A stretch of 50,942 bases of DNA from Gemmatimonadota bacterium (GCA_035687725.1 DASRVB010000139.1:1-50942); one strand, 5' to 3'; shown: positions 13,095 to 48,806, numbered from the stretch's first letter. Notes: a model not told the origin generated them from the sequence alone. Program-made: numbers and translations.

Positions 13095-13121
13095 GGCTGC
13101 GGACGGAAACCGGGTCGCAGG

Positions 13122-13574: not shown

Positions 13575-13631
13575 GTCGCCTGTTCCGCGGGAGTTTGGGG
13601 TTTCCCCCAATATGACCCTGTCCGCCCGCGA

Positions 13632-13699: not shown

Positions 13700-13705
13700 G
13701 TGGAG

Positions 13706-20500: not shown

Positions 20501-20799
20501 GCGAACAGGAGCTGATCGATGCCGGGGTTGTCCCCGGCCAGGTATCCCAACAGCGTGACCGCGCCCACCAGCGCCACCATGGCCGCCGCCACACGGCTCA
20601 TTTTCCACAGCGCGAACACGGCCAGGGTCAGGGCGATCGCGGTCACGGGGTTCATAGAGACCTGGCCCGGGAGGCCGCCCTTGAGCGGATCGATGTCGAG
20701 CGCCCAGCCGACGAAGACCAGCGCGACCAGCACCAGGATGAAGACGCACGCCGCCCGGCTCAGCGTCACGAGACGGCGCGCGCGATCGACCTCGTTCAT
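17509..20799 (-). CDS. hybrid sensor histidine kinase: multi-TM sensor - GAF - HisKA - HATPase - REC - REC - Hpt
   Basis: About 7 N-terminal hydrophobic helices. H-box [19 protein letters not shown]-boxes DTGIGIP and [11 protein letters not shown]. Receivers [13 protein letters not shown]... and [13 protein letters not shown]...[12 protein letters not shown]. Hpt motif [13 protein letters not shown]. Confidence 0.95.
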
Positions 20800-22121: not shown

Positions 22122-22294
22122 CCCAGACCCTCGACAGAGCGACAGCGAGCGACGACCCCGTTTCATCCTAACGAGCGGCCGTTTCCGCGCAAGCGTGGAG
22201 GGCGACGCCGCTCCCAACGGGATCTGTCGGATACGGAGGCGATGCGGTAGCATTCGGCGCCTCGACGCGTGATCCGAACCCCGGAGCGAGCCCC

Positions 22295-22976: not shown

Positions 22977-23684
22977 GTGATCTCCGGTTCGCGCATCCTG
23001 TTCGCTGTTGCGGGGCTGACGGCTGGCGCCCCACCATTGCCCGCAGCCGCCCAGGCCGGAGAGTCGACGTGCGTCGTTCAGCGGATCACCGACGGCGATA
23101 CGATCCGCTGCGGCGACGAGCGCGTGCGTCTCCTCCTGATCGATGCCCCCGAGGAGAATCAGGGCCCCTTCGGGCGCGCCGCGCACGCCTTCCTCGAGGC
23201 GATCCTGCCGGCCGGATCCCATGCCAGGATCGTCACCGACGTGGAGGCACGCGACCAGTACGATCGCCTGCTCGCATACGTCTACCGGCCGGATGGCCGC
23301 ATGGTCAACCACATGATGATCCGGCAGGGATTCGCGGTCCCACTGGTCGTGCCGCCCAACGTTCTGCACGTGGACGAGATCCGGGCCGCCGCCGATTCCG
23401 CGCGCGCTGCGAAGCTGGGACTCTGGGCGATCGATGCCTTCGCGTGCTTGCCGGAGGACTTTCGAGACGGGGTCTGCGCCCCCACGGCAACGCCCGAGCA
23501 CATTCTTCCGCTGGCAGGAGGCTCTAGCGCGGGATGCGCTTCGTCCTACCCCGAAGTGTGCATCCCTCCCCCGCCTCCCGATCTGGACTGCGGCGACATA
23601 CGATTCCGGCGATTCCGTGTGACCGGCTCGGATCCTCACCGCATGGACGGCGACCATGACGGCATGGCCTGCGAAGGAAGCTAG
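22977..23684 (+). CDS. secreted thermonuclease (SNase-like) with a C-terminal Excalibur Ca-binding domain
   Basis: VQRITDGDTIRCGDERVRLLLIDAPE...DQYDRLLAYVY...NHMMIRQGFA...AKLGLW (SNase fold motifs). The C-terminus is CGDIRFRRFRV...DPHRMDGDHDGMACE (Excalibur DxDxDGxxCE). Signal peptide present; GTG start. Confidence 0.85.
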   Translation: MISGSRILFAVAGLTAGAPPLPAAAQAGESTCVVQRITDGDTIRCGDERVRLLLIDAPEENQGPFGRAAHAFLEAILPAGSHARIVTDVEARDQYDRLLAYVYRPDGRMVNHMMIRQGFAVPLVVPPNVLHVDEIRAAADSARAAKLGLWAIDAFACLPEDFRDGVCAPTATPEHILPLAGGSSAGCASSYPEVCIPPPPPDLDCGDIRFRRFRVTGSDPHRMDGDHDGMACEGS

Positions 23685-33574: not shown

Positions 33575-34864
33575 GTGCCCGACAGCGTCACGATCATCGA
33601 CAATCGCACCGGTGAGCGATACGAGCTTCCAGTCATGTACGGAACGTATCCCACCTACGGCGCCGCGATCCCAGCCGCGACCCTGAGGACGATCAAGCAG
33701 TCCGAGGACGACTTCGGGCTCATGACGTACGACCCCGGATACACCAACACGGCTTCGTGTAAGAGCTCGATCACGTTCATCGACGGCGAGCGCGGAATTC
33801 TTCGCTATTGCGGGTACCCGATCGAACAACTCGCCGAGCGCCGGTCGTTTCTAGAGGTCGCGTATCTTCTGCTGGAGAGGGAGCTGCCGGACGGGGACCA
33901 GCTCAACGACTGGACGTGGCACGTCACGCACCACACGATCATTCACGAGAAGATCAAGCGCTTCATGGATGGCTTCCGCTACGACGCGCATCCCATGGGA
34001 ATGCTGGTCAGCACGGTGGCCGCGCTATCGACGTTCTATCCCGAGTCACGGCAGATCCAGGACCCCGACATCCGCCACAAGCAGATCGTGCGGCTGATCG
34101 CCAAGATGCCTACGATCGCCGCGTTCGCCTATCGCTACAGCGCGGGCATGCCGTACGCTTATCCCGACAACGACCTGAGCTACACCGGCAACTTCCTCAA
34201 CATGATGTATCGCTCCACGGAGACCCGATACAAGCCCGACCCCGTCCTCGAGCGGGCGCTGGACGTCCTGTTCGTCCTCCACGCCGACCACGAGCAGAAC
34301 TGCAGCACGAGCACGATGCGCGCCGTGGGGAGCTCCCACGCGGATCCCTACGTCGCGGTGGCGGCCGCCTGCGCCGCGCTGTACGGCCCGCTCCACGGCG
34401 GCGCCAACGAGCGCGTCCTGCGGATGCTCGAGGAGATCGGCAACGTCCGCGAGGTGCCGAAGTACGTCGAGCGCGTGAAGCAGGGCGAGTTCCGCCTGAT
34501 GGGCTTCGGACATCGCGTGTACAAGAACTACGACCCGCGCGCGAAGATCCTTCGCGAGCTCGCCGAGCAGGTCTTCGCCGTGACGGGCAAGAATCCGCTC
34601 ATCGACATCGCCGTCGAGCTGGAGAAGATTGCACTGGAAGACGACTACTTCGTCTCCCGGAAGCTCTATCCGAACGTCGACTTCTACTCGGGGATCATCT
34701 ATCAGGCGATGGGCTTCCCGACCGCGATGTTCCCGGTGCTGTTCGCCATCGCCCGCACGGCGGGCTGGCTCGCCCAGTGGCAGGAGATGTTGGTGGACGA
34801 GGACCAGCGGATCGCCCGCCCCCGGCAGGTCTACACTGGATCCGACGAGCGGGACGTAGACTGA
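33575..34864 (+). CDS. gltA: citrate synthase (type II)
   Basis: GILRYCGYPIEQL...HADHEQNCSTSTMR...LYGPLHGGANE...LMGFGHRVYKNYDPRAKIL. AGGAGG lies 5 nt upstream of the GTG start. Confidence 0.95.
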   Translation: MPDSVTIIDNRTGERYELPVMYGTYPTYGAAIPAATLRTIKQSEDDFGLMTYDPGYTNTASCKSSITFIDGERGILRYCGYPIEQLAERRSFLEVAYLLLERELPDGDQLNDWTWHVTHHTIIHEKIKRFMDGFRYDAHPMGMLVSTVAALSTFYPESRQIQDPDIRHKQIVRLIAKMPTIAAFAYRYSAGMPYAYPDNDLSYTGNFLNMMYRSTETRYKPDPVLERALDVLFVLHADHEQNCSTSTMRAVGSSHADPYVAVAAACAALYGPLHGGANERVLRMLEEIGNVREVPKYVERVKQGEFRLMGFGHRVYKNYDPRAKILRELAEQVFAVTGKNPLIDIAVELEKIALEDDYFVSRKLYPNVDFYSGIIYQAMGFPTAMFPVLFAIARTAGWLAQWQEMLVDEDQRIARPRQVYTGSDERDVD

Positions 34865-35685
34865 CGTTCGGCCCTTCTCCCCTCCAGCTTGACTCCGGAG
34901 ATCCAGATCGCTCCAGGCGCCAGAGCCAGATCTGGGATACCGAAGTCGAAACCTGGCTCAGCCAGATAGACGTTCAGCCCGGTTGGCAATGCGTAGACCT
35001 GGGATGCGGCGTCATGGGAATCCTGGAGCCGCTGAGCCGTCGAAGCATGCCTACCGGACGGGTCATCGCAGTCGAGCCGCGGCCCGCCCTGCTTCTCGCC
35101 GCGCGCGAGTTCGTCGCGCGGGCGGGCCTCGATAACGTGCGCTTGCTCGACACATCTCCCGATCGTACGACCCTGCCCGAAGCCTCCGTCCATCTGGTTC
35201 ATGAACGCTTTCTCCTATCCGGCGGCGCGAACGCGAGCGCGCTCCTCGGCGAGATGGAGCGCCTGGCGCGCCCCGGGGGGATCGTGGCCCTCGAGGAACC
35301 CGACTCCGCCGCCTGGCGCTGCTATCCCGACCACGAAGCATGGAGCAGACTGAGGGAGGCCCTCCGGGCCACGTACGCCGTGGGCGGAGGGGATCTCGAT
35401 GCGGGTTGCACGACGTTCATGTTGCTGAGAGATGCCGGATTCGAGGACGTCCGGATTCGCGCGGCAACGATCGCGCTCCAGGGGATTCACCCGGCCAAGC
35501 GTCTCCTCGTGGAGATGGCGGAAACGCATCGCGAGCGAATCCTCGAGGCCGGCTCGATGGAAGAGCAGGAGCTCGAGCAGGCACTGGCGGATTGTGACGG
35601 AATCGCCCGCGATCCATCGACCATCGTGATCAGCTTTCTCGTGACCCAGGCCTGGGGCCGGAAGACGGGACGTTTCCGCCTGTAA
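34861..35685 (+). CDS. class I SAM-dependent methyltransferase (start codon uncertain)
   Basis: VDLGCGVMGILEPL (motif I), VIAVEP, ARPGGIVALEEPD. There is no in-frame ATG/GTG/TTG between the gltA stop and motif I, so the 5' end given is the first in-frame codon (CTG) after the gltA stop overlap. Confidence 0.6.
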   Translation: MTFGPSPLQLDSGDPDRSRRQSQIWDTEVETWLSQIDVQPGWQCVDLGCGVMGILEPLSRRSMPTGRVIAVEPRPALLLAAREFVARAGLDNVRLLDTSPDRTTLPEASVHLVHERFLLSGGANASALLGEMERLARPGGIVALEEPDSAAWRCYPDHEAWSRLREALRATYAVGGGDLDAGCTTFMLLRDAGFEDVRIRAATIALQGIHPAKRLLVEMAETHRERILEAGSMEEQELEQALADCDGIARDPSTIVISFLVTQAWGRKTGRFRL

Positions 35686-35709: not shown

Positions 35710-35743
35710 GAAGCCCCGCCGCCGATCTCGGCGACGGGGCTTC
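35710..35743. terminator. bidirectional intrinsic terminator between convergent genes
   Basis: GAAGCCCCGCCGCCGA-tc-TCGGCGACGGGGCTTC forms a 16-bp stem with one mismatch. It is followed by TGTTTCG on the plus strand and preceded by CAAAAGAC, which is T-rich on the other strand. Confidence 0.7.
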
Positions 35744-35769: not shown

Positions 35770-37065
35770 TTAGGGCTGGCAGGGCCCGCCAGCGACGTTC
35801 GGAGGAACCAAACAGAAGAAGACATCGTTCGATCCGCCACGCGGCGGGGTGTCGGGGGCCAAGGTCACCGACGAGAACGCAGTGTAGCCGCCGCCCCCGC
35901 TCGTCTTGTAGGCCTTCACCGTGTAAACGACCGACGCGGGAACCTTGGGGTTCATCTGGCAACTCGAGGCCGAGGGATCCTCCTCGTCGGGTATGCTCCC
36001 GCAGCTGCAGGGCACGCCGTTCCCCTGGTCGTCGAAGGGTGCGCACTCGGCCCGGATCGTCGCCTCTTCGTCCTCGTAGAGCTCGCAGGTCGTGCCCTCG
36101 GAGGTGTTCTCGTATTGCGTAGTGAAGTTGCAGATCACCCCTCGCGCCCTTGGATCCATGTCGCCGACCACGACCGGGCTGAACGACGTGAACTTCGTCC
36201 CGAGTCCCGCGGCGTACGCCGGCGTGGCGCGAATCACCCACTGAACCGGCTTCGTGATGCCGTTGATGAATGCTCCCAGGCCCGTAGGTGCTATAGTGCA
36301 GCTGATCAGTCCCGGCGCCGGGGATTCCTCGCCGAATTCGCACTCTTCTCCCGGTGGGCAGTGCAAATGCCGGAGCCTTCCGGTCTCGAACGCTTCGCAA
36401 CTCTCCACCGTGATCGTAGTAAAGGTCCCGTCGGCGTCGACATCGAACACGTCCTTCTGACAGTCGTTATCCGAATTGCCCGGGCAGTCACCCAGGAAGC
36501 TGGTCGAGACCGGACGCGAGGAGACGAACACGAAGACGCCTTTCCCGCCGTCCACACGAAAACCGAACAGGTCGTTCGGCAACTCGCCCGTGCCACCGCC
36601 GGCGAGAGGCCCAGCCGCTACCCACGAGCCGTCCGTGAGGTCGGTGGGTGCATCCGGCACCAGGCACTCCGGCGGGCCAGGGACCAGGCCGGCGAGAGAG
36701 CACGCTATGGCCATGTACTCGATCACGGACTCTTCCAAAGAGGCATCGCCAGCAAACGTCTGCAAATCTTCACCCAGGTAGTCATTATAGATCGCGACGA
36801 TGATGGCATTGACGGTGGCCTCCGCCTGGGCGGTCTTGCCCCTGTCCAAAGCTGCGAGCGCCGTCTTGCATTGCTGCAGTCGGGTGCGCTCGATCGAGGA
36901 GCTCGTGTACATGCCCTCGGTGCGGCTCGTGAACTCCGGTGACTTACACGCTCCGGCCGTCAGCTCGACACCACGACCGGGCTCCGACGGGAGGTTCTGG
37001 TCCCCCTGACACGCGAGCAGGAGGCCACACACTACGAACGGTACCAGACTGCCGAGACGGGGCAC
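35770..37065 (-). CDS. Cys-rich lipoprotein, unknown function (431 aa)
   Basis: Lipobox MPRLGSLVPFVVCGLLLAC; about 20 Cys spread through the mature part. No family recognised. Confidence 0.7.
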   Translation of the reverse strand: MPRLGSLVPFVVCGLLLACQGDQNLPSEPGRGVELTAGACKSPEFTSRTEGMYTSSSIERTRLQQCKTALAALDRGKTAQAEATVNAIIVAIYNDYLGEDLQTFAGDASLEESVIEYMAIACSLAGLVPGPPECLVPDAPTDLTDGSWVAAGPLAGGGTGELPNDLFGFRVDGGKGVFVFVSSRPVSTSFLGDCPGNSDNDCQKDVFDVDADGTFTTITVESCEAFETGRLRHLHCPPGEECEFGEESPAPGLISCTIAPTGLGAFINGITKPVQWVIRATPAYAAGLGTKFTSFSPVVVGDMDPRARGVICNFTTQYENTSEGTTCELYEDEEATIRAECAPFDDQGNGVPCSCGSIPDEEDPSASSCQMNPKVPASVVYTVKAYKTSGGGGYTAFSSVTLAPDTPPRGGSNDVFFCLVPPNVAGGPCQP

Positions 37066-37093
37066 GGGGGAGCCTCCTGGATGATCGGAAAAG

Positions 37094-37123
37094 TTGCCTA
37101 CGAATGATCTTAAGGGCTAGAAT
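37094..37123 (+). promoter_or_regulatory. candidate sigma-70-like promoter of the cyclase-STAND gene
   Basis: TTGCCT (37094-37099), an 18-nt spacer, then TAGAAT (37118-37123), inside a short AT-rich patch in an otherwise GC-rich genome. Confidence 0.4.
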
Positions 37124-37141
37124 ATCAAGTATTTGGTAGAG

Positions 37142-40100
37142 ATGTCAACCTCCCGTCCCAGGTTCTGCACGGAGTGCGGTGCCGCGCTCCCCGAGGCTGC
37201 CAAATTCTGCCCCGAGTGTGGCACGAAAGCATTCCCGTCTGCAACTCCGCCGCAGTCGCCCGCCGAACCGGCCCAGCCCCTACTTCCCGAAATCCCGCCG
37301 GAACTCCGGTCGAAGTTCGAAGCCGCGCAGAAGGAGCTGCGGGGCGACCGCCGCGAAGTCGTGGTCCTGTTCGCGGATCTGAAGGGCTTCACGTCGATGT
37401 CCGAGCAGCTGGATCCCGAAGAGGTGAGCCTCATCATGCAGCGCCTGCTCGGCGAGCTCTCCGATGCGGTCCATCGCTATGAGGGCTACGTCGACAAGTA
37501 CATCGGCGACGCGATCATGGCGCTCTTCGGCGCGCCGCTGGCCCACGAGAACGACGCCGAGCGCGCCGTGCACGCGGCGCTCGACATGCTTCAGGTGGTC
37601 GCACGCCGGAACGAGGAGTCGGACCAGCCTCTCTCGCTCCGCGTGGGGCTCAATCTCGGCGACGTAGTGGCCGCGGACATGGGATCCGAGGGGCGCGTGC
37701 AGTACACCGTCATGGGCGACACGGTCAACGTCGCCTCCCGCCTCGAAGGCGCCGCCGATCCGGACTCGATCCTGATAAGCCACTCCGTCTACGAGAGAAT
37801 CGCGCACCGGTTCGACACCGAGGAAGTCCCCCCGGTAACCGTGAAGGGAAAGTCCGAGCCTCTCCGGGTATACCGCGTCTCCGGCTTGCGCGCCGCCGTC
37901 GACGATCGGGTCTCCAAACGGAGTCCCTTCGTCGGTCGTGACAAGGAGCTCGCTACCCTCGGCGTATTCCTGGATCGTATCGCCTCCGGCGAGGGCCAGG
38001 TGCTCATGATCGAGGCCGAGGCGGGGGCCGGAAAGAGCCGACTCATCGCCGAGGGAGTCGCGCGGTCGGAGGCGGAGGAGTCCGTATTCGAGATCGGCTT
38101 CAACCAGATCCAGATTCCCGGCCAGCTCTCCCCCGTCGCGGAGCTCTTCCGCCGTCTGCTCGCCCTGGGGCCGCAGGACTCGATCGGATCGGCGATCGAG
38201 CGGGCAATGAAGCTCCTGGAAGGGTATGCCGAGGAGCACAGGCATGGGATCTTCGGGCTGGCCCGACAGGCATTCCCTCTAGCTTTCGTCGACTCCGAGA
38301 CCGACGAGGCATCCGACCCGCGGGCGGCCCGCCAGAACCGCTGGATTGCCCTGGCCGCCCTGATCGCAGCCTGCGCAGCACGAAATCCGACCGTGATCGT
38401 CATCGAGGACGTGCACTGGGCCGACGAAGAGGGGCAGGAGTTCCTCGCATACCTCATCCCCGCCCTGGCGCGCAAGCCTGTCGGCTTCATCCTCACCGCC
38501 CGGATGGGTGGCCGACCCGACTGGCTGATGCCGGAGGCCACGACTCTGCGCCTGGAGGCGCTGGGCGAGGATGCCGCCCAGGCGATCCTCGGCGGATTGC
38601 TCGACACGATGCGGCCTTCCGTGCGCCGCGAGATCCTGCGGAGAAGCCAGGGCAATCCGCTCTACCTGGAGGAGCTGGCGCGCTCGCTGTCCGCGAGCGT
38701 CGAAGACACCGCGCAGTCCGTGCCGGGAACTGTCCAGGGCCTTCTGCAGTCCCGCATCGATCGGCTCGAGTCTCCGGTGCGACTTGCCATCCAGATGGCC
38801 TCGGTGCTGGGAACCCAGTTCCCCGTCGGGCTTCTTCATCGCATGTACGCCCTGGATCCTCAACCCGTTCCGTTCGACTCGGTCCTTTCCTGTCTCGAGG
38901 AGCAGTCATTCATCGAGGCGACGGATACGGAGGACGTTCGACGTTTTCGACATGCCCTGATGCAAGAGGTTGCCTACGGCGGAATTCTACAGAGACTGCG
39001 GAAGATCCTTCATGAATCCGCCGCGCAGCTGGGCGAAGAGCACTACGCCGATCGGGTGCAGTCCGAGGCCCCGTTCTTCGCACACCACTACTGGGAAGCC
39101 GATCTTCGCGAACGGGCGGCGCCGCACCTTTTCCGGGCTGCGATGAAAGCAGCGGGTCAATACGACCTCCCCGGCGCGGAACGATGGTTCGGGCAGCTCT
39201 CGACGGTCCTCGCAGACCACGCCGAGGTCCTTCCAGAGCTGTCCGATCGAGCTTCCGTGATGATCCAGTACGGGGCTGTATTGCTAGACCGTGGCCATTA
39301 TGATGCCGCTGATGCCCAGTTCGAGCGGCTGGAGGCACTGGGATCGGAACGGAAGCGCGACGAGTGGGTGGGGCAGGCATTGCGATTTCGTGGGCAGATC
39401 GCAGCCCTCCGCGGCCAGCTGGGCGACTCCCGCGTGTTGTTCGAGAGTGGTTTGGAACGCGTTCCTCGAACGGAAGAAAAGATCACGGCCGATCTCCATA
39501 CGGCCCTTGGCAGCGTTCTCTACTACAGCTCCGACGCAAGCGGAGCCCTGTCCGAGTTCGAGACAGCCCTCGGTCTCTACGAGCGCCTGGATGACCGCCT
39601 CGGCAAGGCGAAATGCTACATGAACATGGGCAATGTCCTGGATGATCTCAGAAATGATCGCACGGCAGCCGAGTCGTCGTATGAAAAGGCACTTGCGCTG
39701 ATCGAGGAAGTCGGGGACCGACGTTTGAAAACGGGGGTCTTGCTCAATCTCGGAACGCTGGCGCTAGGACGCGGGGACTATGACGACGCGCTCGCGCGCT
39801 TTCTCCACGTGGAAGCCGTGGCCGAGGAGATCGGATGGTCATATATGCGGTTCTTGAGCTTGCAGAATCAGGCCAGCTGCAGACTCTCGCTGGGCCAGAT
39901 AGGCAGGGCCATCAGCCTGCTGGAGACATGCATCCGCGAGGGAGAGACGATCCTGAGAGGCGACGACCGGATACGCGTGCGTGTGCTTTTGTTCGAAGCC
40001 TACCTGGCCGCTCTCGATGTCGACCAGGCCCGGGAGAGGCTGGCAGAAGCCCGGCGAGTGGCAGCCGAAATCGGGATGGAAGAGTTGGAAGATATCCTCC

Positions 40101-40612
40101 TGGTCTGCGATGGCCGGCTCCTGGTGGCGGGCAACCATTGGATCGAGGCGTCGCGGGCGTTTTCCAATGCGCTGGAGACTGCGACCCGACTGGGACACCC
40201 GGCGGTCCAGCCGGTAGTTCGTGCGCATCTCTTCAGGGCGAGATACAGGCTCGGGGAATACGCCGAGCCCCCCTCCTTGGAGGATGTGGATCAGAACCCG
40301 GATCGCGCGCTGATCGTGTACCTGACGGCGGAAGGAGACGCTGCCCGGAAATCCTCCAGGGAAGCGGCACAGAAGCTCGAGGAGGCCGGCCAACTGGCAG
40401 GCGACCTCGGGGTCGTGGCTCTGGAACGGGCCGCCTTCGAGCGTGCAGCAGAGGTCTGGGAAGCGTTGGGAGAGGAAGAAGCTCGAAGTGCGGCCTTGCG
40501 TCGGGCAGCGGTCGCCATGTCGTCTCTCGAGGCCAATCTGCCGAACGATCTGCGCGAAGCCTTCACCGCCCACCCGAAGAACGAAGCCCTGCGGACGCTG
40601 GTGCCCGCCTGA
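37142..40612 (+). CDS. zinc-ribbon / class III adenylate-guanylate cyclase / STAND (AAA_16-type) ATPase / TPR protein (paralog A)
   Basis: RFCTECGAALPEAAKFCPECG. Cyclase motifs VVVLFADLKGFT, YIGDAIMALFGAP and MGDTVNVASRLEG. Walker A EAEAGAGKSRL. A long helical-repeat C-terminal half. ATG at 37142 (alternative TTG at 37133). Confidence 0.9.
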   Translation: MSTSRPRFCTECGAALPEAAKFCPECGTKAFPSATPPQSPAEPAQPLLPEIPPELRSKFEAAQKELRGDRREVVVLFADLKGFTSMSEQLDPEEVSLIMQRLLGELSDAVHRYEGYVDKYIGDAIMALFGAPLAHENDAERAVHAALDMLQVVARRNEESDQPLSLRVGLNLGDVVAADMGSEGRVQYTVMGDTVNVASRLEGAADPDSILISHSVYERIAHRFDTEEVPPVTVKGKSEPLRVYRVSGLRAAVDDRVSKRSPFVGRDKELATLGVFLDRIASGEGQVLMIEAEAGAGKSRLIAEGVARSEAEESVFEIGFNQIQIPGQLSPVAELFRRLLALGPQDSIGSAIERAMKLLEGYAEEHRHGIFGLARQAFPLAFVDSETDEASDPRAARQNRWIALAALIAACAARNPTVIVIEDVHWADEEGQEFLAYLIPALARKPVGFILTARMGGRPDWLMPEATTLRLEALGEDAAQAILGGLLDTMRPSVRREILRRSQGNPLYLEELARSLSASVEDTAQSVPGTVQGLLQSRIDRLESPVRLAIQMASVLGTQFPVGLLHRMYALDPQPVPFDSVLSCLEEQSFIEATDTEDVRRFRHALMQEVAYGGILQRLRKILHESAAQLGEEHYADRVQSEAPFFAHHYWEADLRERAAPHLFRAAMKAAGQYDLPGAERWFGQLSTVLADHAEVLPELSDRASVMIQYGAVLLDRGHYDAADAQFERLEALGSERKRDEWVGQALRFRGQIAALRGQLGDSRVLFESGLERVPRTEEKITADLHTALGSVLYYSSDASGALSEFETALGLYERLDDRLGKAKCYMNMGNVLDDLRNDRTAAESSYEKALALIEEVGDRRLKTGVLLNLGTLALGRGDYDDALARFLHVEAVAEEIGWSYMRFLSLQNQASCRLSLGQIGRAISLLETCIREGETILRGDDRIRVRVLLFEAYLAALDVDQARERLAEARRVAAEIGMEELEDILLVCDGRLLVAGNHWIEASRAFSNALETATRLGHPAVQPVVRAHLFRARYRLGEYAEPPSLEDVDQNPDRALIVYLTAEGDAARKSSREAAQKLEEAGQLAGDLGVVALERAAFERAAEVWEALGEEEARSAALRRAAVAMSSLEANLPNDLREAFTAHPKNEALRTLVPA

Positions 40613-40615
40613 CGA

Positions 40616-41182
40616 TCAGTCGCCGGCGTCGACAGGACCGTCGAAGAGCTTGATCACCGGGATCACGATCCAGCGGCCCGACATCCCTGCCTCGCGCACG
40701 AAGCTCTCCCCCGCGTCGAAATCCAGGACCAGCAGCTCTTCCGGATCGACCAGGTCCAGCTCCCGGCCCTGAAGGACGACCTTGAAGCCCGACGTCGAGC
40801 AGCTCGGGCACATCAGCTCACCCGCGATCGGCCCCTCACCCGGCGGCTCGAACCCGTCGGTGGCGAAGATCTCCCCGCTCTCCAGCATGATCGCCGCCCC
40901 ATCGAGGACGACCCGCAACTGCCCGTAGCGCCCCGCTGGGACTACCACGTCACCGGCGATCTCCTGTGCGCTGTCGATCAGCTCGAGGAGGTCGATGGGA
41001 CCGGTCGGGCCGTTGAACAGGATCACCCGCCCGCCGGCACCATCCTCGTCGCCTTCTCCGCCCTGCAGGTAGATCTCCGCTATGTCGACCCAGGCATGCG
41101 CGATGTCGCCGGGAGCGTCCGTGAGAAGCACGGTGACGGACGTCGGATCCGGCACGCCACCCGGCCCTCCGCGTCGTCGCAT
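40616..41182 (-). CDS. DUF4382-domain protein (body only; the signal peptide seems to lie in another frame upstream)
   Basis: VTVLLTDAPGDIAHAWVDIAEIYLQ...IDLLEL...PAGRYGQLRVVL...CPSCSTSGFKVVL...LVLDFDAGESFV matches the DUF4382 pattern. Read from the ATG at 41182, the protein has no signal peptide. Confidence 0.75.
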   Translation of the reverse strand: MRRRGGPGGVPDPTSVTVLLTDAPGDIAHAWVDIAEIYLQGGEGDEDGAGGRVILFNGPTGPIDLLELIDSAQEIAGDVVVPAGRYGQLRVVLDGAAIMLESGEIFATDGFEPPGEGPIAGELMCPSCSTSGFKVVLQGRELDLVDPEELLVLDFDAGESFVREAGMSGRWIVIPVIKLFDGPVDAGD

Positions 41183-41271
41183 CCCACGAACGCGATCGCG
41201 GCAGTCGTCGCCCACACCGCGAGGCCTCGGAGCCGTCGTATCCGCTGCGACCCGAACTCCATCACCGCCCT

Positions 41272-43206
41272 CTACCGCCCGCGGACGATCCCCATCATCA
41301 CCGTTTCGTAGTGCATCCCCTTGATCGAAAGCTCGAACGCCTTCACGAGATATACACCGGGAAACCGGTGGGCGCGGCGCGCATAGCTGTAGAACTCGCG
41401 GTTGAGCACGTACAGCAGCTCGGCGTCCTCGCGCGCGACCCGGCGCGCCTCCAGTCCCTCGCGCATCCGCTCGACGATCCCCCCCACGTCGTCGAGCGAC
41501 CACTCCGGCCGCGCTCGAACGAGGGCGTCGCGCGCGCGCTCGATCATCGCCGCCAGCTCCCGCGCCCGATCCTCATTGAGGTGGAGGGTGCGCGCCTCGC
41601 CGGCCAAGGCCGCGAGCCTCCGCTTGAGATCCGCGGCCGCCCGTCCTGCGGCGCGATAGCGAGCCAGGTCGCTCCTCGCGGCCTTCCACAAGAGGCGCAG
41701 GTACTCGCGCCGCTCCCTCGATATCACTCCCTGCTTCCACAGCGACCGCAGCGCGGCCTTGACGTCGCTGCCCGAGACGTGCTGCCCGCGGAAGATGTGG
41801 GGGTTCAGTCGGTCGATGAGGTCGCTCGCCCGGTGGTAGATCTCCCCCGGGCCGAAGAGGCTCTCGAGGATGCGATGGTAGTTCGTCTTCATCGCTTCCG
41901 GAGTCATGTGCTTGGGAATCAGCTGCACGTCGTCGTCGGAGTTGTTTCCGGAGAACTCGCTCTCCAAGAGCCTCCCCTCCTCGCGCAGGCGCTCCGCCAG
42001 CGGGGTATGCGGAATGGGTGTCAGCATTCCGGTCATTGCGGTGGGGATCGCGACCTTCTTGGCGAAGTCGGCGATCGCGTCGGCCGTCGCGGGTGTATCC
42101 TCGTCACCGCCGAAGATGAACCCGGCCATGACTTCGATCCCCGCGTCCTGGATCAGCCCCACCGTATCGGCGATGTCGACCTTGAGGTTCTGCTTCTTGT
42201 TCATGTTCTTCAGCGCCGTCGGATCGGGGTTCTCGATCCCCAGGAACACCTCGTTGAAGCCGGCCTGCTTCATGAGCGGCAGCAGGTGTTGGAGCTTCGG
42301 GCTTCCGAGATCCAGGCTCGCCTGCGTGTAGAACGAGAACGGGTAGTCGTGCTCGCGCTGGAAGCGGATCATCTCTTCGAGGATTCCCTCGATGGCATCG
42401 GGGTTCCCGACGAAGTTGTCGTCCACCGTGAAGATCCCGCCGCGATGCCCGAGGTCGTAGATGATCCTGAGCTCGTCGCGGACGGACTGCAGGGTCTTGG
42501 GGCGCGTGAACCCGCCGTTGAACTGGATGATGTCGCAGAAGTCGCAGCGGAATCGGCAGCCGACCGTCGTCTGCCCCATCAGCGCGCGATAGTTGCCGAT
42601 GTCCACGAGGTCCCAGCGTGGTGGTGGAGTGTAATCCAGCTCGCGGAAGATCGAGCGATCGTTCAGGACCTTGCGCGACCCCGGTGGCTCGGCAGCGATC
42701 GCATCGGGGATCAGAAGCACCGGCCGGCCCGTGCGATGACGGCCGAGCTCCGGGTCGTCGAGGATCCGGCAGATGGCATCGACCCACTGCCCGCCTTCGC
42801 CCCACACCAGGACGTCCAGGCCCTCGTTCAGGACGGCGTCCGACGGGGTGTGAGGATCGAGCAGGTGATCGCGATAGGAAGATGGATAGGGCCCGCCAAG
42901 AACCCACGGCGTATCGAGACCCTTCGCGGGACCGCTCACGAGCTCGACGAGCGACGGCTTCTGGACCGACATGGCTCCTGTGAACACGGCGTCCGCGTCG
43001 GCGATCCGGTCCCTGAGCTCTTCGTCCGGGAGTCGTTCGACGTTGAGATCGATGAGCTCGAACTGCCAGTTGTCGGGCATGAAAGCGGCGAACGTGATCA
43101 GGCCGAGAGGCGGGAAGGCGGCCTTCCTGCCGATCATCGGCATGATGTAGCGATAGCTCCAGAACGAATTCGGCGGGAATTCGGGGGCGATCAGGAGCCC
43201 CTTCAT
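41272..43206 (-). CDS. B12-binding-domain radical SAM protein with a DUF4070-like C-terminal extension
   Basis: From the Met at 43206: MKGLLIAPEFPPNSFWS...PPLGLITFAAFMP (B12-binding-like N-domain), GCRFRCDFCD (CxxxCxxC), FLGIENPDPTALKNMNKKQN, and a long helical C-terminal region. Confidence 0.85.
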   Translation of the reverse strand: MKGLLIAPEFPPNSFWSYRYIMPMIGRKAAFPPLGLITFAAFMPDNWQFELIDLNVERLPDEELRDRIADADAVFTGAMSVQKPSLVELVSGPAKGLDTPWVLGGPYPSSYRDHLLDPHTPSDAVLNEGLDVLVWGEGGQWVDAICRILDDPELGRHRTGRPVLLIPDAIAAEPPGSRKVLNDRSIFRELDYTPPPRWDLVDIGNYRALMGQTTVGCRFRCDFCDIIQFNGGFTRPKTLQSVRDELRIIYDLGHRGGIFTVDDNFVGNPDAIEGILEEMIRFQREHDYPFSFYTQASLDLGSPKLQHLLPLMKQAGFNEVFLGIENPDPTALKNMNKKQNLKVDIADTVGLIQDAGIEVMAGFIFGGDEDTPATADAIADFAKKVAIPTAMTGMLTPIPHTPLAERLREEGRLLESEFSGNNSDDDVQLIPKHMTPEAMKTNYHRILESLFGPGEIYHRASDLIDRLNPHIFRGQHVSGSDVKAALRSLWKQGVISRERREYLRLLWKAARSDLARYRAAGRAAADLKRRLAALAGEARTLHLNEDRARELAAMIERARDALVRARPEWSLDDVGGIVERMREGLEARRVAREDAELLYVLNREFYSYARRAHRFPGVYLVKAFELSIKGMHYETVMMGIVRGR

Positions 43207-43313
43207 CGGTCGATCCGAAACAGGATTCGGTAACCGGCCTTGCGACGGAACCGGCTGTAAGCCCTCTATCTCGAGTAGCTGCATCCCGAGAACATCACCC
43301 GCCGTCGGTCCCG

Positions 43314-43361
43314 CCGCAAGGTACGACCCGTCATAGCGCTATGACACGACCTGTCTTGCGG
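43314..43361. promoter_or_regulatory. nested dyad element with a perfect 16-bp palindrome
   Basis: CCGCAAG-gt-ACGACC-c-GTCATAGCGCTATGAC-ACGACC-tgt-CTTGCGG. The outer 7-nt arms are 43314-43320 and 43355-43361; the inner palindrome is 43330-43345. It lies about 124 nt upstream of the radical SAM start. Confidence 0.4.
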
Positions 43362-43558
43362 TCGAGGAAATAGCCCGCGCCGAGGTACACGAACCTTCGC
43401 TCGGAGGCTTCCCTCCCGCGATCCTCTTCCTTTCGCGTATTCCTTCGCATTCGAGCCCACCTCCCTATCCGCAGCCCGCATACACTTCCTATCCTATCCG
43501 GCAAATCCCCTTCCTGCTGTTCGGGATCGAACGCGGTTCGATGCCTTACGACGGCGCC

Positions 43559-46500
43559 CTACAGATAGCCGGGTTCACGGGCCCGCGCAGCAGCCTCACG
43601 TACGCGTGCGTAAGCCAGGTCCCTGTCGCCTGCGTCGGCCGCCGCGACGGCTTCCCCCAGGGCCTCCCGCACGGGTTCGGTGGCGGGCTGGACCTCCGGT
43701 GCGAGCAGCGAGCGCGCGAGCCCGACAGCGCGCTCGAGATCCCCCTCCTCCAGGCTGACGGCGAGCAGGGGCCAGGTCACGATCCAGGCGAGGACGCGAT
43801 ACGCCCCGCCCATCTTCTCCCCTTCCTCGTGAGCCCGGCGGGCTCGATCGGCGGCCTCCGGGAGATTCCCCTCCCTGAGAGCCGCCCACGCCAGATGCGA
43901 CTCGGCCGCGGCTACGTACTCGGCCATGCCGCTCGCCGCCCCCGCTTCGAGTGTGCGATACGCCCAGCGCCGAGCTCCAGCGACATCCCCGCGCTTGCGA
44001 TGGATCAGCGCGATGTAGGCAATGCAACGGGACTGGAGCGTCGCGTATCCCACTCGCTCGGCCTCGGCCAGGAGCTCGCGCAGGTGGCGCTCCGACTCGT
44101 CCAGCCGATCCGCCCACAGGAGGCTGAAGGCGTAGACGAAGCGTACGTCCGCGACTTCGAGCCTCGGTTCGACGTCGAATGTCGCATCGAAGCCCGCGCG
44201 CGCGTGCTCGACGGTCTTCGCCGACGCCACGTACCGTTCGCGCCGCAGCCCGAGCAGCGCCATGGAATTGAACAGGAGCGCGCGTTGAAGCGCCGTGCCC
44301 CGCGCTTCCACGACCGGCGCCGAGCGCTCGATCTGCTCGGCCAGGACGTCCGCCGTCGACGTGAAGTACTGGAGCATGATCCTGCCGAGCTCGATCGCCG
44401 CGCGCTCCTCGTTCCACTCCGGCGAGGGATCTGCGGGCGGCTCACCCAGCTCCTCCACCGCGCGATCGAAGAACGCGAGGGCTTCTTCCCGGCGCCGCTG
44501 GATCTGTCGGCTGCTGCCGGCCTTTCGCATCAGGCGCCCGCGTGCGAGGCGCTCCTCCGGCGGCCGGTCCGCGAGCGCCCGCTCGAAGGATTCGACCGCC
44601 TCGTCGTGGCTCCCGCCGAGCTCGAGCACGTCACCGATCGATTCCCGGATCCGTGTCCGCAGATCACGCGCGCTGTCGTCGTCGGTCAGCGTAGCCAGCC
44701 GCTCGAGCGCGCGGCGAAACGCCTGCAGGGCTTCCTCGTTCAGGTGCGCGCGGCGCGATTTCTCGCCGGCCCGGAACAGGTACGTGGCCGCTCGAGCGGC
44801 GTCGTCCGTTCGGTCGTAGTGGTAGGCCAGACGCTCCACGTGCTCCTCCAGCCGGTCGGCGTACAGCTCCTCGATCGCCTGGGCGGCGGCGAGGTGTAGC
44901 GCGCCGCGACGCTTTTTGAGGAGGCTCTTGTAGACGGTGTCCCGCGTGAAGACGTGCTTGAAGGAGTACTCCTCCTCGGGAACCACGCGATCCAGAAACA
45001 CGAGATCGTGCTGCTCGAGCTGCCACAGGGCGCGGTCGAGATCCAGCTCGGCGCCGACCATCTCGTCCAGGAGATTCTTCGAGAACACTCTGCCGATCAC
45101 GGCCGCCGACTGGAGCGCGCGCCTCGGTTCGTCGTCGATCCTGTCTACGCGGGACTGGATGATGCTCTGGACGGTCGTGGGCACGTCGTCGACTCGCAGG
45201 CGATCGGCCACCGCGACCCCCCTCTCGCCGACCGCGATCTGTTCGGACGCCAGGAGCGATCGCAGGACTTCCTCGACGAACAGGGGATTCCCCTGAGCCT
45301 TCTCGAGGATGGCGCCGAGCGCCGATGAGGGAAACTCTTCGGTCCCGAGGAGCGCCAGCACGAGGCGCCGCGTCTCCGTCTCGTCCAGCGGTCGCAGGCG
45401 GAGCTCGGCATATCGACCCCGCGCGTGCCGCTCGATGAGCGGGACCAGGTGCCTGGAGGCATGTTCCTGAACGGGGCGCTGCACGCAGACGAGAACCGAG
45501 CGCGAGCCGGACAACCCCTCGACCAGCCGGGGCACGAGCTCGAGCGTCAGGCTGTCCGCCCAGTGGAGGTCGTCGAGCACGAGGACGATGGGATGCCTGT
45601 CGGCGAGAGCCCGCAGGTACTCGACGACGGCGAGGAAGGTCCGCGCCTTGACCTGCTGGGGCGGCAGGTCGCCGAAGTCGAGCGCGCGTGGATCGGGGAT
45701 CGAGAGGAGGTTGAGGATCGGCACCAGGACCTCGTCGATCCGCTCGGCGGCCAGTGCGTCGCCGGCCAGCCCCGAGATCTCCTCGGCCACCGGCTCGACC
45801 CTCGCGGCGACTCCGGCGCCCGGCGGGAACCGCTCCCTCAAGAGGTCCACGATCGGGGCATAGCTCGTCGAGGCGCTCGACTCCAGGCAGCGGCCCTCGA
45901 GCCACAGCCACCCGCCGTTGCCGTTCGGACCGAGCGCGAGCCTTCGGACCTCGGTCAGGAGTCTCGACTTTCCGACACCGGCCTCGCCGATCACCGTCAC
46001 CGCCTGCCCGGCGCCGGCGCGCGCTTTCCCGATGGCGTCGGAAAGCCTGCCGAGCTCCTCGTCGCGGCCGATCAGCGCCGCGCGCAGACCCTCCACGCCG
46101 CGTGCGACCTCCGGACGTGGCCGCTGCCGGAGCGCGGCCCACGCCGCGACGGGCTCGGCCAGCCCTTTGATGCGGGTCTCCCGCGGCTCGAAGTCGAATG
46201 CTCGCCGTGCGATCCGCCACGCGCTCTCCCCCACCAGCACCTCTCCGGGCTCGCACCGTCCCTGAAGCCTCGCCGCGAGGTTGACCGCCGGGCCCATCGC
46301 CGTGAGCTCGCGGTGGACGTCCGAGCCCACCCGGCCCACGTACGCGTCTCCGGTATTGATCCCGGCGGTGATCTCGAATCCCCGGGTGCGGGCTGCGTCC
46401 CGCATCTCGAGCGCCGCCCGGATCGCCCGGACGGGATCGTCCTCGTTCGCCCGCGGAACCCCGAAGAGCGCGAGGATCCCGTCGCCGAGATAGCGGTCGA

Positions 46501-46741
46501 TCCGCCCGCCCTGCCGAGCCACGGCGCTCGACATGACTTCCAGCGCCTCGCTCACCCGCTCGAGCGCCGCCTCGGGATCCAGATCGTGCGTGGTGGCGAC
46601 CGAACCGCTCATGTCGGCGAAAAGGACGGTAACGAGCCGCGTCTCGTCCTGGCGGGACGCCGCCACAGGCAGGGTGGCGCCGCATTCGGGACAGAACCGG
46701 GCACCGGGTGCGACCTCGGCCTGGCAGCCCGGGCAGATCAT
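43559..46741 (-). CDS. zinc-ribbon / class III cyclase / STAND ATPase / TPR protein (paralog B)
   Basis: From the Met at 46741: MICPGCQAEVAPGARFCPECG, VTVLFADMSGS, YLGDGILALFGVP, MGPAVNLAARLQG, Walker A GEAGVGKSRL, and a helical-repeat C-terminal half. The upstream extension in the track ORF is Arg/Ser-rich junk. Confidence 0.9.
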   Translation of the reverse strand: MICPGCQAEVAPGARFCPECGATLPVAASRQDETRLVTVLFADMSGSVATTHDLDPEAALERVSEALEVMSSAVARQGGRIDRYLGDGILALFGVPRANEDDPVRAIRAALEMRDAARTRGFEITAGINTGDAYVGRVGSDVHRELTAMGPAVNLAARLQGRCEPGEVLVGESAWRIARRAFDFEPRETRIKGLAEPVAAWAALRQRPRPEVARGVEGLRAALIGRDEELGRLSDAIGKARAGAGQAVTVIGEAGVGKSRLLTEVRRLALGPNGNGGWLWLEGRCLESSASTSYAPIVDLLRERFPPGAGVAARVEPVAEEISGLAGDALAAERIDEVLVPILNLLSIPDPRALDFGDLPPQQVKARTFLAVVEYLRALADRHPIVLVLDDLHWADSLTLELVPRLVEGLSGSRSVLVCVQRPVQEHASRHLVPLIERHARGRYAELRLRPLDETETRRLVLALLGTEEFPSSALGAILEKAQGNPLFVEEVLRSLLASEQIAVGERGVAVADRLRVDDVPTTVQSIIQSRVDRIDDEPRRALQSAAVIGRVFSKNLLDEMVGAELDLDRALWQLEQHDLVFLDRVVPEEEYSFKHVFTRDTVYKSLLKKRRGALHLAAAQAIEELYADRLEEHVERLAYHYDRTDDAARAATYLFRAGEKSRRAHLNEEALQAFRRALERLATLTDDDSARDLRTRIRESIGDVLELGGSHDEAVESFERALADRPPEERLARGRLMRKAGSSRQIQRRREEALAFFDRAVEELGEPPADPSPEWNEERAAIELGRIMLQYFTSTADVLAEQIERSAPVVEARGTALQRALLFNSMALLGLRRERYVASAKTVEHARAGFDATFDVEPRLEVADVRFVYAFSLLWADRLDESERHLRELLAEAERVGYATLQSRCIAYIALIHRKRGDVAGARRWAYRTLEAGAASGMAEYVAAAESHLAWAALREGNLPEAADRARRAHEEGEKMGGAYRVLAWIVTWPLLAVSLEEGDLERAVGLARSLLAPEVQPATEPVREALGEAVAAADAGDRDLAYARVREAAARAREPGYL

Positions 46742-46742
46742 C

Positions 46743-48806
46743 TCAACCCGAGATCGGCGGGACGAGTTCCTGAGACGCAGGCGAAGACGCGGCCGCGGGG
46801 AGCGTGAACCGGAAGACCGCTCCGCGTCCCGGCTCCGACTCGGCCCAGATCCGGCCGCCCTGCGCCTCCACGATCCGGCGGCAGATCGCCAGGCCGAGCC
46901 CGGTTCCGGGAGCGCCGTGGTCGACATTCAGGCGCTCGAAGATGACGAACACCTTCTCCGCGTCGGCCGGATCGAACCCGCGGCCGTTGTCGACCACGTC
47001 GAAGCGCCACATCGGACCCTCCCGACTGGCGGAGATCCGGATCTCTGGCACCCGACCGTCGTGCCGGTACTTGATGGAGTTCGAGAGGAGGTTCTGGAAC
47101 AGGCCGGTCAGGCGCGTCTGGCCGACCGCGACACGCGGCAGCGAACCGACTTCGATGCGCGCATCGGTCTCCCGGATCGCCGACTTGAGTCTCTCCACCG
47201 CGTCGGCCACCGCCTGGCTCGATTCGGCCTCTCCGGCGGAAGGCCGATCGGCGGTGGAGTACTCGAGCAGATCGTCGATCAGCTCGTTCATCCTGCGCAC
47301 CCCCGCGAACACGAAGCCGGCCGAGCGACGGATCTCGGGCTCATTGATCTCCCGCAGCCGGTTTTCGATCAGCTGGACGTTGCTGACGATCGTCCGCAGG
47401 GGCTCCTTGAGGTCGTGGGATGCCGCGTACGACAGCACGGATAGCTCCCGGTTCGACCGATGCAGCTCCTCCATCCGGCGCTCGAGCTCCATCTCGTCGC
47501 GCTTCCGGTCGGTGATGTCGTGGCAGGTCCCGATCATGCGTCGCGGGAGCCCCGATTCGTCGCGGATGACGTAACCCTTGCTCTGAAGCACGCGGACGTC
47601 GCCGTCGGGCCGAACGATGCGCTCCTCGAACTCGAACTCCTCCGTTCCCTCCAGCGCCGCCCGGATGGAGGAGGCGGCATGATCGCGATCGTTCGGGTGG
47701 ACGCGCTCTATGTACGACTCGTAGGTGATCTCCACGGATTCCGGCTCCAGTCCGTAGATCCTGTACAGCTCGTCCGACCAGGCGACCTTGTTCGCCAGAA
47801 TATCCCACTCCCAGCTGCCGATGTGCGCCACTTTCTGGGCGTCGTTGAGGACCGAGCGGCTCTTCTGGAGCTTCTCGACGGCGTCCGCCAGCGAAGCGGT
47901 CCGCTTCCTGACCTGCTCCTCGAGCTCGTCGCGGCTGCGCAGGAGATCGAGTTCCACCCGCTGGCGCTCGCGCGTACCCGCCGCAAGCACCAGGACGGTC
48001 AAAGTGATCACGGTAACGAAGAGCTGGAGCATCAGCAGCGACTCGTTGATGGAACCGTCCGCGAAGGGACCGCCTTCCTGGAGCGTCCCGAAGAGCGCGA
48101 TAAGGGAGGTAGCCACGGCGGCGCTGGCGGCGCCACGGCGTCCGAACCGCAGGGCTGCCCAGATCAGCGGAGGCAGGACGGCGAACGAGGCCGGCATGCT
48201 GCGATGGAACACGAACCAGGCGGTGACGCCGAGGATCGAGGCCAGCGCGACCGCCTCCAGGGGCTTGCCGGGAACGGGTCGACGTCCGGCCTTGCGCGAC
48301 CAGAGGACGATCAGTGGCGTGAAGATGAGCGCTCCGCCGAGGTCGCCGAGAAACCAGGTCAGCCAGACTTCGAGCATCTGGGACTGCTCGGCATAGCCCC
48401 CGGCCCACAGACTGAACAGACCGACAGTGGCGCTAAGCGCCGTCGCCGGCAGGACGAGGGCGGCGAAGCGGAGGACTCCCCGTGGCCGCTCGAACGATGC
48501 GCTGCCCGCCGCGAAGCGATTCACGAGCTCGGCCGCGACCACCGCCTCGAGCGTATTTCCGATCGCGATCCCGGCCGAGGTGGTGATAGAGCCGGTGGTG
48601 GTGACGTTGACGAGGAAGGCGGCGAGGGCGACGGCCGGCCAGATCCGAAGGCCGAAGAGGAGCGCGGCGGCGATGGCGATCCCGCTCGGGAGCCAGAACG
48701 GGCTCGCGCTCTCGTTCACCGAGGCCAGGGCCAGTCCGAGCTTCCCGGCCAGGAAATAGAGGAGCGATGCGGTGGCGAGATCGAGCAGGTATCGCCTGGC
48801 GCTCAC
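46743..48806 (-). CDS. sensor histidine kinase: MASE1 membrane domain - PAS - HisKA - HATPase
   Basis: LLYFLAGKLGLALASVNESASPFWLPSGIAIAAALLFG (MASE1-like), PAS (HIGSWEWD...VAWSDELYRIYG), H-box SHDLKEPLR, G-box [18 protein letters not shown]. Confidence 0.9.
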   Translation of the reverse strand: MSARRYLLDLATASLLYFLAGKLGLALASVNESASPFWLPSGIAIAAALLFGLRIWPAVALAAFLVNVTTTGSITTSAGIAIGNTLEAVVAAELVNRFAAGSASFERPRGVLRFAALVLPATALSATVGLFSLWAGGYAEQSQMLEVWLTWFLGDLGGALIFTPLIVLWSRKAGRRPVPGKPLEAVALASILGVTAWFVFHRSMPASFAVLPPLIWAALRFGRRGAASAAVATSLIALFGTLQEGGPFADGSINESLLMLQLFVTVITLTVLVLAAGTRERQRVELDLLRSRDELEEQVRKRTASLADAVEKLQKSRSVLNDAQKVAHIGSWEWDILANKVAWSDELYRIYGLEPESVEITYESYIERVHPNDRDHAASSIRAALEGTEEFEFEERIVRPDGDVRVLQSKGYVIRDESGLPRRMIGTCHDITDRKRDEMELERRMEELHRSNRELSVLSYAASHDLKEPLRTIVSNVQLIENRLREINEPEIRRSAGFVFAGVRRMNELIDDLLEYSTADRPSAGEAESSQAVADAVERLKSAIRETDARIEVGSLPRVAVGQTRLTGLFQNLLSNSIKYRHDGRVPEIRISASREGPMWRFDVVDNGRGFDPADAEKVFVIFERLNVDHGAPGTGLGLAICRRIVEAQGGRIWAESEPGRGAVFRFTLPAAASSPASQELVPPISG

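Follow-up and report, generated by a model that had tools for sequence, protein, structure and literature searches.

The closest characterised relatives of the two giant proteins considered here are the mycobacterial Mclx proteins (Rv0386, Rv1358 and Rv2488c), which combine a cyclase domain, an AAA/NB-ARC ATPase (with tetratricopeptide repeats, TPR) and a LuxR helix-turn-helix (HTH) domain (PMC4452763; bioRxiv 10.1101/2024.03.06.583649), while a three-domain layout of B12-binding, radical S-adenosylmethionine (radical SAM) and DUF4070 domains has been described for HpnP and uncharacterised HpnP-like clades (PMC10697835). Genes comparable to both lie side by side in the window, the whole 50,942-nucleotide stretch of DNA analysed here, which is a contig of a Gemmatimonadota metagenome-assembled genome (MAG; GCA_035687725.1, DASRVB010000139.1:1-50942) with its proteins on record as HET6361769-776. 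Two of its genes, here termed cyc1 and cyc2, code for Zn-ribbon/class III cyclase/STAND NTPase/TPR proteins and bracket a radical SAM gene (rSAM) and a DUF4382 gene. The initial annotation of positions 37142-46741 had raised the possibility that these four genes, along with an upstream MASE1 kinase gene, constitute a functional block. In related genomes, however, the genes around each member vary freely, and the region probably consists of three units that evolve independently and have come to lie side by side in this lineage, and not of one system.

The first unit would comprise the MASE1-PAS histidine kinase gene and cyc2, which are probably co-transcribed. The second would be a stand-alone radical SAM/DUF4070 gene that is kept across the phylum and accompanied, in a small number of close relatives, by an accessory gene for a DUF4382 lipoprotein, and the third a two-gene module in which a Cys-rich lipoprotein gene is divergent from cyc1. 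The pairing of this lipoprotein gene with cyc1 is the only robust gene-neighbourhood signal in the region, and it lies just outside the interval annotated initially. The genes concerned are located as follows (window coordinates):

35770-37065, minus strand: Cys-rich lipoprotein gene (lipobox LLLAC)
37066-37141, unstranded: divergent intergenic region of 76 bp between the lipoprotein gene and cyc1, with promoter-like hexamers
37142-40612, plus strand: cyc1, Zn-ribbon, class III cyclase, AAA_16 STAND NTPase and TPR, 1156 aa (Pfam)
40616-41262, minus strand: DUF4382 gene (Pfam), frameshifted in this assembly
41272-43206, minus strand: rSAM, radical SAM/DUF4070 (Pfam)
43559-46741, minus strand: cyc2, 1060 aa, with the same four domains as cyc1 (Pfam)
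46743-48806, minus strand: MASE1-PAS-HisKA-HATPase sensor histidine kinase gene (Pfam MASE1 7.1e-45, PAS_3 2.9e-21, HATPase_c 1.2e-25)

The kinase, cyc2, rSAM and DUF4382 genes share the minus strand and cyc1 alone converges on them. The earlier picture of two giants facing each other across an insert therefore holds for cyc1, while cyc2 is co-directional with the insert genes; likewise, the length of 1156 aa given for one giant stands, while the 1061 aa given for the other had counted the stop codon. The kinase TGA stop codon (46745-46743) is situated 1 nt from the cyc2 ATG, the DUF4382 start lies 7 nt past the rSAM stop, and the stops of cyc1 and DUF4382 are 3 nt apart. The cyc2 stop and the rSAM start are separated by a gap of 352 bp, for which a terminator scan returned no intrinsic terminator.

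Homologues of rSAM number in the thousands in protein searches and share 65-94% amino acid identity across the Gemmatimonadota. An alignment-based scan anchored on rSAM, with one genome per species and flanks of up to 10 kb, yielded 80 loci (Gemmatimonadota: 52-94% identity; Binatia: 50-54%), the comparison genomes being mostly fragmented MAGs. Cyclase-STAND genes were found by tblastn within 10 kb of rSAM only where the rSAM product shares at least 84% identity with that of the window (loci L001, L003, L004, L005, L012, L017 and L046 in our numbering), and none occurs in the ~35 loci whose flanks extend the full 10 kb in both directions. The co-occurrence of block genes across genomes that had been envisaged is thus confined to the closest clade among the 80 loci. 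Clustering of all neighbouring open reading frames (ORFs) revealed no shared rSAM neighbour outside groups of close relatives. Furthermore, in a Pfam census covering the nearest two genes upstream and the nearest two downstream of rSAM in the non-Binatia loci, Guanylate_cyc and AAA_16 domains were encoded by 5/102 and 4/102 upstream genes, respectively, and DUF4382 by 2/92 downstream genes, while the commonest family overall reached 8/102. The lack of a fixed partner in both the clustering and the census indicates that rSAM is a stand-alone conserved gene.

Among the closest relatives, genes are gained and lost individually, which argues against a functional four-gene system. In three loci with rSAM at 92-94% identity (L003, L004 and L005), the DNA aligns to the window on both sides of a missing segment, with 180-310 bp replacing ~5.7 kb of the window (35.55-41.28 kb) that harbors the lipoprotein, cyc1 and DUF4382 genes. 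The break in blastn synteny falls at ~35.55-35.75 kb, so that a methyltransferase gene marks the left edge of the segment missing in close relatives. In L006 (rSAM 86%) the kinase gene is followed directly by rSAM, without cyc2, while the near-identical relative L083 has cyc1 and the lipoprotein gene and no DUF4382 gene. In L017 two other genes (9636-14287) are located between rSAM and cyc1. These are homologues of the metallo-beta-lactamase/receiver and hybrid kinase genes found at 17.5-22.3 kb in the window, and the presence of homologues of genes from window positions 17509-22253 inside this gap points to local rearrangement. The arrangement of the window is reproduced, with an intact DUF4382 gene, in L087.

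Relatives of the two giants also occur in other surroundings. Those of cyc2 at 54%, 49% and 43% identity have unrelated neighbours, namely PMT glycosyltransferase and MASE8 cyclase genes, WYL regulator and UvrD/PDDEXK helicase-nuclease genes, and LysR and NosD genes, while cyc1 relatives at 44-52% identity are found in other contexts (e.g., GTP cyclohydrolase-RecA-NUDIX ... HhH-GPD). In three MAGs, rSAM and the nearest cyc relatives are located on separate contigs (DASZOP01: rSAM L009, cyc L085; CAMYLR01: rSAM L016, cyc L088; JBOHRQ01: rSAM L011, cyc L090/L093). Two modules lie in tandem in L088, and positions 18-58 kb of the 100-kb contig JBOHRQ010000002.1 (L090 and L093) hold three cyclase-AAA_16-TPR genes, a MASE8 cyclase gene and a cyclase-TPR gene in ~40 kb. 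As such, cyclase genes cluster in Gemmatimonadota, and two copies a few kb apart are not remarkable per se. The striking pair of paralogues across rSAM would rather represent a lineage-specific accident of gene order and should not be listed as a novel system.

A divergent lipoprotein gene is located 28-260 bp upstream of all thirteen cyc1-type genes for which upstream sequence is available (window, L087, L083, L017, L091, L092, L012, both modules of L088, L089, L090, L093 and L094), and the pairing is kept in several different chromosomal contexts. Nine of the thirteen lipoproteins belong to one family, characterised by the lipobox L-x-[AGS]-C-Q-G-D and ten invariant Cys residues, while the other four form a second lipoprotein family; the families are not all detectably homologous. 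The window lipoprotein contains 20 Cys, including the ten that are invariant in the family, with whose members it shares 27-46% amino acid identity in a seven-sequence alignment (22-44% in pairwise BLAST/tblastn comparisons), the corresponding cyc1 products sharing 50-88%. It has no match in Pfam, NCBIfam, PADLOC or the PDB, nor did a profile search with the lipoprotein family against the PDB and Pfam return anything significant, and a single-sequence AlphaFold2 model (mean pLDDT: 36.9) was unusable. A metagenome scan anchored on the lipoprotein recovered two loci, both adjoining cyc1. Four promoter-like sites were counted, compared to 1.1 +/- 1.1 in shuffled sequences, these being consensus matches only; three of them fall within 37094-37148, on both strands, overlapping the intergenic sequence and reaching a few bases into cyc1. 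For the other giant, the kinase gene is found upstream of cyc2 in L001, L004, L017 and L083, such that the adjacency holds in 5/5 clade members with upstream sequence and does not extend beyond the clade.

The DUF4382 gene had been described as encoding a lipoprotein. The domain itself is present (PF14321; Bitscore: 72.4; E-value: 5.4e-20) and starts at ~41149. The lipoprotein signal MEFGSQRIRRLRGLAVWATTAAIAFVGC (ATG at 41262; lipobox Cys at 41181-41179) is, however, in another frame than the domain, with a 1-nt indel or frame switch between positions 41178 and 41150, within GACGACGCGGAGGGCCGGGTGGCGTGCCG (minus strand), and the window copy thus has no in-frame lipoprotein signal before PF14321. 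The gene is intact and in frame in L001, L012 and L087, and the window copy may be a pseudogene or reflect an assembly error.

The four-part architecture attributed to both giants was recovered in full by Pfam comparison, with matches to Zn_Ribbon_1 (E-values: 6.5e-7 for cyc1 and 2.8e-6 for cyc2), Guanylate_cyc (1.3e-31 and 1.7e-11), AAA_16 (8e-20 and 6.2e-28) and TPR_12 (7.9e-16 and 8.2e-6). The class III cyclase domain (PF00211) scores 110 bits in cyc1 and 44.5 bits in cyc2 against a cut-off of 21.9, and AAA_16 72.4 and 98.8 bits against 32.6, while the TPR_12 score is above the cut-off of 30.1 in cyc1 (58.5 bits) and below it in cyc2 (26.4 bits). All of the motifs cited initially (CxxC, FADxxG, (I/L)GD and Walker A) are present in the two proteins, as CxxC...CxxC, LFADLKG/LFADMSG and IGD/LGD, together with intact Walker A (EAGAGKSRL/EAGVGKSRL) and Walker B (VIVIEDVHWAD/VLVLDDLHWAD) motifs in cyc1/cyc2. 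Both giants have the domains and motifs of STAND NTPases of the MalT/LAL type, and the intact domains, catalytic residues and Walker motifs are consistent with the proposal that each is a STAND-type sensor with a nucleotide-cyclase output. No match to a GerE/LuxR HTH domain was found in either protein with Pfam at E<=0.01. The two share 30% amino acid identity over 799 aa (E-value: 5e-72), and this distant homology shows that they are old paralogues or members of one family rather than the result of a recent duplication. The exact products of both ORFs are on public record, that of cyc2 as the 'AAA family ATPase' HET6361775.1. The NCBI cyc1 protein (HET6361772.1) has 1083 aa, is therefore called from a later start and lacks the Zn-ribbon, while the ENA record has the 1156-aa form, which agrees with homologues that retain the Zn-ribbon. 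The GC content at third codon positions (GC3) is 0.77 for cyc1 compared to 0.86 for its neighbours.

Adenylate-specific class III cyclases carry a Lys four residues before the second metal-binding Asp, paired with an Asp or a Thr. Each cyclase was aligned with its close homologues and Cya2, the cyc1 group comprising 72 rows and the cyc2 group 44 rows. The catalytic residues had been taken to be intact, and alignment to the Cya2 structure (2W01) bears this out, both proteins having the two metal-binding Asp as well as the Asn and Arg of the transition state. These four residues are kept in 68-70 of the 72 cyc1-group rows and in 41-43 of the 44 cyc2-group rows, almost all of the remainder being gaps. 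The cyc1 hexad is D-K-D-T-N-R (VDKYIGD and QYTVMG) and is near-exceptionless in its group, with Lys in the specificity column of 67/72 rows and a gap in three. This Lys/Thr pair is the canonical adenylate-cyclase set, and by this residue pattern cyc1 is predicted to be adenylate-specific. The hexad of cyc2 is D-R-D-T-N-R, and that of its group D-R-D-(T/S)-N-R. At residue 88 (IDRYLGD; window 46460-46480) an Arg replaces the adenine-specifying Lys, so that the specificity residues singled out for inspection in the initial annotation indicate adenine for cyc1 alone. Arg occupies this column in 37/44 cyc2-group rows, with Ser in four, and holds down to ~39% identity. Arg is also found in cyc2 relatives at ~39-41% identity that are labelled Dormibacteraeota and Thermoplasmatota by their sources. 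With an Arg/Thr pair in place of the adenylate-specific set, no nucleotide product can be assigned to cyc2 from its residues.

Class III cyclase domains need head-to-tail dimers for catalysis. We suggest that each of the two giants acts on its own as a cytoplasmic one-component sensor of the MalT/LAL STAND type. A ligand or partner protein would be bound by the TPR array at the C-terminus, upon which the AAA_16 NTPase would exchange its nucleotide and oligomerise, and oligomerisation would bring the N-terminal cyclase domains into such dimers and thereby yield a cyclic nucleotide. The product would be cyclic AMP (cAMP) for cyc1, with its Lys/Thr pair, and some cyclic nucleoside monophosphate (cNMP) for cyc2, with its Arg/Thr pair. 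We infer the transcription units, the cyclase products and this activation mechanism, the steps of the latter from what is established for STAND proteins and for class III cyclases. Among the ~35 window genes scanned, none encodes a cNMP-binding or CRP domain, in agreement with the earlier remark that the block itself contains no such receptor, and the targets must therefore be located elsewhere in the genome. A bolder proposal, which we consider rather unlikely, is that the cyc1-type proteins of Gemmatimonadota and the divergent, fast-evolving, disulfide-rich lipoprotein form a conserved two-gene module linking envelope state to cAMP synthesis and that, separately, the Arg-bearing cyc2 clade may make a non-cAMP cyclic nucleotide. 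Of modest value in either case, the invariable pairing offers an abundant and uncharacterised sensor class a concrete candidate partner in the lipoprotein, and the conserved Lys-to-Arg change in the cyc2 orthogroup a simple target for studies of substrate specificity.

A single cNMP-signalling block of kinase, cyc2, rSAM, DUF4382 and cyc1, in which the two cyclase switches control, or are controlled by, rSAM and the envelope lipoprotein, would accommodate the tight spacing in the region (gaps of 1 nt for kinase/cyc2, 7 nt for rSAM/DUF4382 and 3 nt for DUF4382/cyc1), the recurrence of the arrangement in the near relatives L083 and L087 and the presence of cNMP-related genes near some other rSAM orthologues. 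No component, however, co-occurs with rSAM beyond the closest clade and each is dispensable within it, cyc1 and cyc2 orthologues elsewhere have unrelated neighbours, cyc2 and rSAM are separated by 352 bp, and DUF4382 is frameshifted in this assembly. We regard such a block as very unlikely, the comparative data having largely refuted it. Some STAND proteins with repeat sensors act in defence, and the region could alternatively be read as an anti-phage defence island in which the STAND NTPases sense infection and give a Pycsar-like cyclase output. PADLOC PycC models match both cyclase domains (E-values: 1.4e-34 and 1.7e-15), the genes are present in some close relatives and not in others, and the evolution of the partner lipoprotein is fast. 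The PycC matches, however, reflect nothing beyond the shared class III fold, the Pfam Guanylate_cyc model scoring equally well, and PADLOC returned no match for the neighbouring rSAM, DUF4382, lipoprotein or kinase genes. The housekeeping, syntenic setting (citrate synthase, PurH/PurN and RecA) without mobile-element genes, the lack of an adjacent TIR, transmembrane or other cNMP-activated effector, and the canonical Lys/Thr adenylate-cyclase pair of cyc1 together make a defence role most unlikely.

Compatible with the juxtaposition of three units is a possibility that we hold tentatively, namely that cyc2 and the kinase form a two-gene sensory unit and that cyc1 and its lipoprotein cooperate, for example with cAMP controlling lipoprotein expression or the TPR array sensing the lipoprotein precursor or envelope state. 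The kinase-cyc2 adjacency in all five clade members with upstream sequence, with a 1-nt gap in the window, the thirteen-fold recurrence of the lipoprotein-cyc1 pairing across several contexts and the promoter-like sites on both strands of the shared intergenic region favor this. Yet a receiver domain is missing from cyc2, L006 retains the kinase in the absence of cyc2, and no kinase accompanies the more distant relatives of cyc2. Homology could not be detected among all of the lipoprotein families, and no mechanism joins a cytoplasmic TPR protein to an exported lipoprotein. Several observations also weigh against a purely accidental juxtaposition. In the closest clade cyc2 precedes rSAM in 7/8 readable loci, and a clade-specific functional link between the two, which is compatible with the synteny, may exist. 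In addition, three kinds of cNMP-related genes occur near rSAM orthologues at 73-94% identity, namely the cyclase-STAND genes, a CHASE2 cyclase gene in L007 and L009-11 (1-2.5 kb upstream), and a peroxiredoxin (AhpC/Redoxin)/cNMP-binding fusion gene directly downstream of rSAM in L002/L008. These could hint at a loose, weak and clade-limited association, for which the fragmented state of the MAGs leaves room. The fusion gene in L002/L008 (12017-12973, 31 nt downstream of a 74%-identical rSAM) is unusual in its own right and may reflect a redox/cNMP link.

The region is flanked on its left by the following features:

33575-34864, plus strand: citrate synthase gene (Pfam and ORF list)
~34876-35685, plus strand: UbiE-type methyltransferase gene after the citrate synthase gene, start approximate, a context gene (tblastn: 67% identity to the L087 methyltransferase)
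35710-35743, minus strand: strong hairpin with a 15-bp stem and T tract, downstream of the lipoprotein gene and before the methyltransferase gene that converges on it

GC3-based gene calling had placed two small minus-strand ORFs at 34.8-35.7 kb, which were discarded in favor of the plus-strand methyltransferase gene identified by tblastn. A perfect 16-bp palindrome, GTCATAGCGCTATGAC, situated at 43330-43345 in the 352-bp gap upstream of rSAM, was considered as a conserved operator and dropped; imperfect copies are present in three of the closest relatives and in none of 78 other rSAM upstream regions. Further afield, a metallo-beta-lactamase-fold/receiver gene and a GAF-containing hybrid histidine kinase gene with Hpt are found 20 kb away (17509-22253), next to a gene for an RR-GAF-HD-GYP protein (15103-17502). 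A 773-aa polytopic membrane protein is encoded at 23681-26002 on the minus strand; it has no Pfam match, and an AT skew outlier (0.277) occurs at 24-26 kb.

The Zn-ribbon/cyclase/AAA_16/TPR architecture is a known and well-populated one and is among the commonest multidomain cyclase types. A HMMER scan with cyc1 against 1.84 billion representative proteins identified 22,868 clusters (50% identity) at E<=1e-30 and 194,374 at E<=1e-3, many matches spanning from the Zn-ribbon to beyond residue 700, while word-indexed searches returned at least 5,170 matches for cyc2 at E<=1e-30 and at least 5,613 for cyc1 at E<=1e-60. Among the matches listed, this domain list was observed in Gemmatimonadota, Longimicrobiaceae, Chloroflexota, Dormibacteraeota, Poribacteria, Saganbacteria, Gammaproteobacteria and one Thermoplasmatota archaeon, usually under the source names 'class 3 adenylate cyclase/TPR repeat protein' or 'AAA family ATPase'. 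Full-text literature searches returned, besides the mycobacterial Mclx work, no paper describing this exact architecture.

The rSAM product had been annotated as a B12-binding radical SAM enzyme. Its Radical_SAM (Bitscore: 59.7; E-value: 5.2e-16) and DUF4070 (73.8; 1.9e-20) domains and its CX3CX2C motif (GCRFRCDFC) are those of HpnP-like class B enzymes, while the B12-binding domain (PF02310) was not reported by Pfam for the window protein at E<=0.01 and gives a weak precomputed match in relatives. Alignments to the BchE and HpnR models begin at residue 30-33, indicating a BchE/HpnR-like N-terminal region. The protein thus resembles the HpnP-like proteins in layout and differs from them in that it reaches the NCBIfam cut-off of no named family, scoring far below those of HpnR, BchE, HpnJ, PhpK and all others.

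Compared to known cyclase systems, the two giants differ from Pycsar in having no adjacent TIR or transmembrane cNMP-activated effector, and do not qualify as members. The TOMM kinase/cyclase fusion family (TIGR03903) aligns with them over its cyclase-AAA_16-TPR portion (model positions ~277-937). The scores of 218.5 and 251 bits, however, fall far short of the cut-off of 705.75, the match starts at model position 277-280, past the kinase portion, and there is neither a kinase domain in the giants nor any TOMM gene nearby. Among solved structures, Synechocystis Cya2 (PDB 2W01; Lys variant in a phytochrome fusion, 6FHT) is the best relative (E-values: 1.2e-32 and 1.5e-22), its metal-binding Asp residues and Asn/Arg pair aligning with both cyclase domains, while the two specificity positions differ (Glu/Gly in Cya2, Lys/Thr in cyc1 and Arg/Thr in cyc2). 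With the MalT/LAL STAND regulators they share AAA_16, the Walker A (GxxGxGKS) and Walker B (hhhhDDxHWAD) motifs and a subsequent TPR/MalT-like sensor arm. The output of the window proteins is a cyclase domain, whereas that of MalT/LAL is a DNA-binding domain, and ligand-induced oligomerisation would be the presumed common step. The Mclx proteins come closest and, within a similar length of ~1,000-1,150 aa, carry a class III cyclase domain at the N-terminus, then a P-loop ATPase of the MalT/LAL type and helical repeats; cyc1 and cyc2 differ from these in the absence of the C-terminal LuxR/GerE HTH, in their N-terminal Zn-ribbon, and in a Lys/Thr (cyc1) or Arg/Thr (cyc2) pair where a Gln/Asn pair is described for the mycobacterial enzyme.

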